NCBI RefSeq assembly: GCF_030013205.1
Contig: NZ_CP122648.1
From: Escherichia coli
Lineage (GTDB): Bacteria > Pseudomonadota > Gammaproteobacteria > Enterobacterales > Enterobacteriaceae
DNA length: 64,000 bases
Strand: one strand, 5' to 3'
The position numbers and the translations under genes were made by a program. The notes under the pieces are model-generated. The model saw only the letters and a list, made by a program, of their open reading frames with translations. It searched no databases and had not been told where the DNA came from. Below are positions 3,606-3,700 of the stretch, piece after piece (the stretch's first letter is position 1; each line of letters starts with the position of its first letter).

Positions 3606-3614
3606 TCTTACATA

Positions 3615-3650
3615 GCTGGATATGGCGTCAGCCGTATCCAGCGATATCTT
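3615..3650 (+). terminator. probable relA intrinsic terminator hairpin
   Basis: inverted repeat gctggatatgg / ccgtatccagc with 5-nt loop, followed by a T-rich tract, 10 nt after the relA stop. Confidence 0.45.
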
Positions 3651-3700
3651 TTACTCGAAGGTATTACACCTGACAGACCCGCAATTTTCAGGACATTCTA

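Follow-up and report, generated by a model that had tools for sequence, protein, structure and literature searches.

A mazEF-free relA-mazG spacer with a REP-like hairpin in Escherichia coli ETEC4079, probably the ancestral allele of the locus

The genes relA and mazG are separated by 95 bp in the stretch of E. coli DNA analysed here (64 kb; hereafter, the window), with rlmD upstream of relA and pyrG and eno downstream of mazG. The gene borders proposed in the initial annotation, with relA ending at 3605 and mazG starting at 3701, were exact according to the ORF list, the NCBIfam matches and the annotation of strain K_EC180; the boundaries of both genes are identical in the RefSeq annotation of this near-identical genome. 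The features of the interval are as follows:

1371 to 3605, + strand: relA (GTP diphosphokinase), 744 aa, with stop codon TAG at 3603-3605; full-length match to NCBIfam NF008124 with 1678 bits
3606 to 3700, + strand: relA-mazG spacer, mazEF-free allele, 95 bp
3612 to 3644, + strand: putative degenerate REP element, ATAG-GCTGGATATGGC-GTCA-GCCGTATCCAGC-GA, recognised by its similarity to the REPs found at this position in other genera
3643 to 3654, + strand: T-rich tail (GATATCTTTTAC), a possible weak intrinsic-terminator tail at a site flagged by a consensus scan
3666 to 3700, + strand: mazG leader (CACCTGACAGACCCGCAATTTTCAGGA...) common with the mazEF-bearing allele, from an alignment to BL21
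3701 to 4492, + strand: mazG (nucleoside triphosphate pyrophosphohydrolase), intact, 263 aa; matches to TIGR00444 (419 bits) and NF007113 (370 bits)

Over positions 1-14000, the window matches with 100% identity the chromosome (NZ_CP122643.1) of E. coli ETEC4079, a strain from pig faeces in Belgium, and positions 47001-64000 show 0 mismatches to the same sequence. Strain K_EC180 is a close relative, with 100% identity over 701 bp, but within the first 10 kb it differs by 38 mismatches and by indels. The nearest relatives of the window, at 99.5% identity, are O139:H1 and Stx2e swine strains. Since O139:H1/ST1 is tabulated as phylogroup D (PMC11052496), the 99.5% identity to O139:H1 strains indicates that ETEC4079 probably belongs to phylogroup D, judging by relatedness alone.

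Positions 3606-3700 contain no gene, the sole ORF touching the gap being one of 50 aa (3622-3774) without a Pfam match. This ORF was rejected as a gene, as it starts within a hairpin and overlaps mazG out of frame. Adjacent ORFs for MazE_antitoxin (PF04014) and PemK_toxin (PF02452) are absent from the gap; the MazE and MazF proteins of BL21, included as positive controls, matched PF04014 and PF02452, respectively. Likewise, tblastn with MazE, MazF, ChpS and ChpB returned no match in the 64-kb window, and an Rfam scan of positions 3300-4000 at E ≤ 1 gave no match. The mazE promoter/operator, an alternating palindrome upstream of mazE, was also sought, and there is no similarity between the window spacer and the relA-mazE spacer of K-12. 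An AGGA Shine-Dalgarno sequence is situated ca. 8 nt before the ATG of mazG, inside the conserved leader.

The initial annotation assigned to the gap only a terminator-like hairpin, and a single such site is indeed present, although we refine its identity to a degenerate REP. The stem-loop spans positions 3615-3642, with 12 pairs, 7 of them G-C, and a 4-nt loop, and is followed by the tail GATATCTTTT. Alone, the hairpin folds at −23.3 kcal/mol, and the fold of the 106-nt spacer has a z-score of −5.5 with respect to shuffled sequences. The REP family has a consensus with a GTAG head and GCCGGAT...ATCCGGC arms, from which the window element departs in its head, ATAG instead of GTAG, and in its arms, GCTGG/CCAGC where GCCGG is expected. 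It resembles the REPs and BIMEs of Enterobacteriaceae in being an imperfect palindrome of ca. 30 nt, intercistronic and placed straight after a stop codon, beginning 7-10 nt past that of relA and thus at a gene 3′ end. Additionally, identity with the REPs that E. albertii, C. gillenii and K. pneumoniae have at this site is 71-78%, above that of all 500 shuffles. The allele of SCPM-O-B-8794, a divergent Escherichia representative, retains the GTAG head and GCCGG/CCGG arms, and its stem differs from that of the window by one compensatory pair plus three single-sided changes, still pairing; as these amount to two distinct stem haplotypes with one double compensatory change, a thin basis for covariation, we did not lean on them. 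The 91-nt probe for the spacer matches once per genome, so that the element is an orphan in single copy and not the multi-copy sequence of a typical REP. Nevertheless, sequences with the generic architecture of REPs are found at other places of the window, with canonical-looking REPs at 19392, 25895 and 47566. We read the spacer hairpin as a degenerate or decayed REP, which would have been inherited in place.

In K-12, mazEF was said to lie between relA and mazG, and mazE and mazF are found at this position in BL21 and in K-12-like genomes. Alignment of the window with BL21 shows identity up to the relA stop codon and then a total break. Near-identity returns at CACCTGACAG, ca. 35 nt ahead of the mazG ATG, with weaker similarity extending back to around position 3645. 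In this way, ca. 40-55 nt of the window, essentially the hairpin, correspond to ca. 690 nt in BL21 that comprise the mazE promoter/operator, mazE, mazF and a short 3′ spacer. As aligned, the difference is a replacement and no clean indel, and the alignment with BL21 revealed no remnant of the mazE operator, mazE or mazF in the window spacer. The relA-mazE-mazF-mazG operon of K-12 and BL21 is orthologous to, and near-identical with, the window in relA, mazG and the last ca. 35 nt of the mazG leader; it differs in that mazG of K-12 is additionally behind the autoregulated mazEF promoter, whereas that of the window is not.

The alignment break with BL21 and the negative tblastn searches bear out the earlier proposal that the strain lacks the canonical mazEF locus, and the suggested search for mazF in the remaining genome gave the same picture. 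A chimeric query, composed of a CRISPR region specific to ETEC4079 together with mazEF and chpSB, found two places on the ETEC4079 chromosome, and a local BLAST identified the second as the other CRISPR array. Because both places are CRISPR arrays, there is no K-12-like mazEF or chpSB DNA elsewhere on this chromosome. There were also zero matches to mazEF on the E. coli plasmids of the collection. The check for MazF homologues, including distant members of the PemK family, was confined to the window, ca. 130 kb of other chromosomal sequence, plasmid unnamed1 and a 50-kb portion of plasmid unnamed2.

The second MazF-family module of K-12, chpSB, is situated between ytfP and ppa. All that is left of it in the ytfP-ppa spacer of ETEC4079 (379 bp; L088, 20028-20406) is a decayed piece of chpB of ca. 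85 nt, with 50% aa identity over 28 residues, which indicates that chpSB was lost secondarily in this strain. The IncFII plasmid unnamed1 (L089, 36127-36591) carries an intact pemI, and an IS91-family element cuts pemK after ca. 13 codons; this pemI is thus an orphan antitoxin gene. With mazEF absent, chpSB reduced to a remnant and pemK truncated, ETEC4079 may be left without any functional toxin of the MazF/PemK family, whether of K-12 or of R100 type.

To estimate the frequency of this arrangement we surveyed 5,426 complete E. coli genomes, using a 91-bp spacer probe (positions 3590-3680 of the window) and the mazEF genes of BL21:

91-bp spacer probe: 1,006 of 5,426 genomes (18.5%), once each, full length and chromosomal
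BL21 mazEF probe: 4,419 of 5,426 genomes, never on a plasmid
relA-mazG locus: 5,425 of 5,426 genomes, the sum of 1,006 and 4,419

Since both counts add up to the number of genomes with the locus, the two alleles partition E. coli, and the sets of genomes with the empty allele and with mazEF appear to be disjoint, as in a two-allele polymorphism. The empty allele is highly uniform across the 1,006 genomes. The sub-allele of the window, with the TAG stop codon and the CATTCTAATG leader, occurs with at least 99% identity in 218 genomes, and identity with the 91-bp probe is 96.7-97.8% for ST131, ABU83972 and further B2 genomes. The empty allele is carried, for instance, by ST131, JJ2434 and ABU 83972, all from phylogroup B2; strain LF82, also B2, has mazEF, so the split does not strictly follow phylogroups.

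A separate rearrangement was seen in E. coli SW07163 (NZ_CM129852.1; L003, 2905-3971), where an IS1 is located directly upstream of an intact mazF and mazE is split, the remainder of the mazEF locus being elsewhere in the genome (two places). In this strain, the mazF toxin gene would therefore be apparently intact while its cognate antitoxin gene is not.

Strains without mazEF have been described before. The module is missing in many of them, such as UTI89, in which relA-mazG is an undisturbed operon, and mazEF has been considered an insertion with no functional relation to the genes next to it (Fraikin, Goormaghtigh and Van Melderen, 2020; PMC7167474). Similarly, CFT073 is without a classic mazF, and repertoires of TA modules cluster by phylogroup (Bustamante and Vidal, 2020; PMC7232551). 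The mazEF-free locus of the uropathogens UTI89 and CFT073 (PMC7167474, PMC7232551) has the same gene order as the window and a spacer of the same allele family. The strains differ, because that of the window is a porcine ETEC near O139:H1/ST1, probably of phylogroup D instead of B2, and has a type I-E CRISPR-Cas system. The presence/absence polymorphism of mazEF is thus ordinary and already published, with nothing new in principle; what is added here is its frequency (18.5%), the probable REP identity and ancestral status of the spacer, and the finding that chpSB and a functional pemK are also gone.

The polarity of the polymorphism was examined with a MazG query and one genome per species, which yielded 80 Enterobacterales loci. 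The gene relA is directly upstream of mazG in 79 of the 80, and none of these 79 contains a MazE or MazF homologue between the two genes. Most of the gaps measure 34-420 bp; they are occupied by REP/BIME sequences, and the REPs of Citrobacter, Klebsiella and Enterobacter at this site match the position of the window hairpin. A gap of 95 bp is also present in two divergent species representatives labelled as E. coli and in Citrobacter gillenii, whose REP aligns with the window hairpin. This gene order in the outgroups, together with the REP homology at the same position, suggests that the empty allele is ancestral and that mazEF is the insertion. We thus consider it very probable that the spacer is an ancestral, never-occupied site, that a cassette of ca. 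690 bp with mazEF replaced the REP in the other allele, and that transcription reading through from relA accounts for the expression of mazG here. As to direction, an insertion into an ancestral REP site would follow from parsimony and REP homology rather than from a dated phylogeny. The comparison supports the absence of mazEF as a common allele and a presumably ancestral state, as opposed to a strain-specific deletion.

The reverse history, in which a mazEF once present at this site was deleted from the lineage, with the REP arriving later or staying behind, has precedents. In the type strain of E. albertii, NBRC 107761, the relA-mazG spacer (261 bp; L007, 2740-3000) is built around a BIME with two REPs and retains half of the mazE operator palindrome of K-12, ca. 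16 nt from the 3′ end of mazF, and the spacer between mazF and mazG. Judged by these remnants, it is a true scar of the secondary loss of mazEF, so that such losses do occur between relA and mazG. A loss also took place at the paralogous chpSB site of ETEC4079 itself, to judge from its decayed chpB fragment, and phylogroup B2 is polymorphic, LF82 having mazEF and ST131 and ABU83972 not. The window shares with E. albertii the lack of mazEF genes between relA and mazG, but not the scar: its spacer holds no remnant of the mazE operator, mazE or mazF. It is, moreover, collinear with the outgroups, in a flank-REP-flank layout of the same 95 bp as in C. gillenii, and the allele is uniform in 1,006 genomes and present in the two divergent Escherichia species representatives. 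These data make secondary loss quite improbable for the window. As REPs are mobile, an independent REP may alternatively have inserted at the same spot after a clean excision of mazEF. We give practically no credence to an assembly or coordinate artefact, with mazEF present but collapsed or misplaced, or to an adjacent mazEF pair, which had been named as grounds for discarding the observation; in each of 1,006 independent genomes, out of the 5,426 complete ones, the junction is covered by one contiguous match, the window is identical to the closed chromosome of ETEC4079, and K-12-like mazEF DNA was found neither elsewhere on that chromosome nor on any plasmid of the collection. Under the preferred reading, an ancestral empty site, the E. 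albertii scar implies either that the insertion of mazEF is older than the split between E. coli and E. albertii or that the alleles have been moving by recombination. An insertion predating the split would in turn mean that both alleles have long co-segregated.

The same hairpin bears on how mazG is expressed. A crude consensus scan of positions 3300-4000 found no sigma-70-like promoter; since the spacer lacks a promoter-like site and the Shine-Dalgarno and leader are conserved, transcripts starting at the relA promoters would continue through the REP hairpin into mazG. The likely role of the hairpin is to stabilise the mRNA 3′ end or to serve as a partial terminator or attenuator, which would tune the relA:mazG ratio. 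No MazF activity would be expected from the relA-mazG locus of this strain, and mazG would be outside of MazE-MazF autoregulation, having lost, compared to K-12, the input of the autoregulated mazEF promoter. For both the co-transcription of relA and mazG and the role of the hairpin, we infer from sequence. Read-through agrees with the description of relA-mazG as an undisturbed bicistronic operon in strains without mazEF (PMC7167474). A rival reading has the hairpin as a dedicated, efficient relA terminator and mazG as an independent transcription unit in the empty allele. In its favour, the GC-rich stem of 12 bp is stable (−23.3 kcal/mol) and is followed by TCTTTT, and the structure is kept in the divergent allele with one compensatory change. 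However, REP palindromes conserve their structure for reasons other than termination, and the U-tract is short and set apart from the stem by GAUA: there are 6 T in the 8-nt tail window, just 4 of them consecutive and offset from the stem by GATA. The consensus scan itself found one terminator-like site against 0.7 expected in shuffled sequences, which is not significant alone. With no promoter-like site for mazG downstream of the hairpin and with the bicistronic description of such strains (PMC7167474), we regard an efficient terminator as improbable, and favour read-through.

Other genera have different cargo between relA and mazG. The spacer of Superficieibacter (L020, 2174-2786) contains a parDE pair (Pfam ParD_antitoxin and ParE_toxin), and that of Buttiauxella agrestis (L044, 1341-2928) genes for Hcp and a DUF4225 protein plus a small membrane ORF; Klebsiella spallanzanii (L034, 1-2520) has fimbrial usher and subunit genes upstream of mazG, and S. 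electus (L018, 2566-2904) has an ORF of 112 aa that is like the small ORF of Buttiauxella in size and position. A parDE pair has also been reported at the relA-mazG site in Salmonella (Fraikin et al., 2020; PMC7167474). This differing cargo points to an insertion hotspot. A more far-reaching reading, which we find rather unlikely, is that of a hotspot of the Enterobacterales marked by REPs and swapping small selfish or defence cassettes, with the REP as a target or as a recombination substrate; its examples would be mazEF in Escherichia, parDE in Superficieibacter and Salmonella, and Hcp-DUF4225 with a possible immunity gene in Buttiauxella. If so, the window would be an unoccupied "attachment" allele, and the insertion mechanism could be reconstructed from pairs of alleles.

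The initial annotation had considered the absence of mazEF relevant to phenotypes attributed to MazF, which is a fair point, although a generic one, the absence from many strains being published (PMC7167474, PMC7232551). Explanations based on MazF of K-12, including programmed cell death, persistence, stress-induced mRNA cleavage and phage defence, are not transferable to ETEC4079. Defence by MazF against RNA phages is claimed in a 2023 bioRxiv preprint. The caveat extends to ca. 18.5% of the E. coli genomes sequenced, among them those of ST131 and further major lineages of ExPEC. Chromosomal TA modules have been described as horizontally transferred cassettes that are co-transcribed with downstream genes (Ramisetty et al., 2016), and our results support the view of chromosomal type II TA modules as accessory insertions into functional operons, and not as integral stress regulators.

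Several other traits of the window were observed. It contains two type I-E CRISPR arrays, at 9979-10251 (5 repeats) and 35953-36347 (7 repeats), the former with two repeat-spacer units fewer than in K_EC180, and a complete cas3-cas2 operon between cysH and iap, with a gene of the hok/gef family just upstream of cas3. The variable region between rpoS and mutS has a gene for a protein serine/threonine phosphatase that is split by IS1, at ca. 50470-51603; this region also contains a gene for a MarR regulator and a cluster for a three-subunit hydroxyarylic acid decarboxylase. Lastly, according to the RefSeq annotation of K_EC180, a series of pseudogenes follows shortly after eno (ca. 7803-13700 in the window), with an internal stop in ygcG and frameshifts in ygcE and yqcE.
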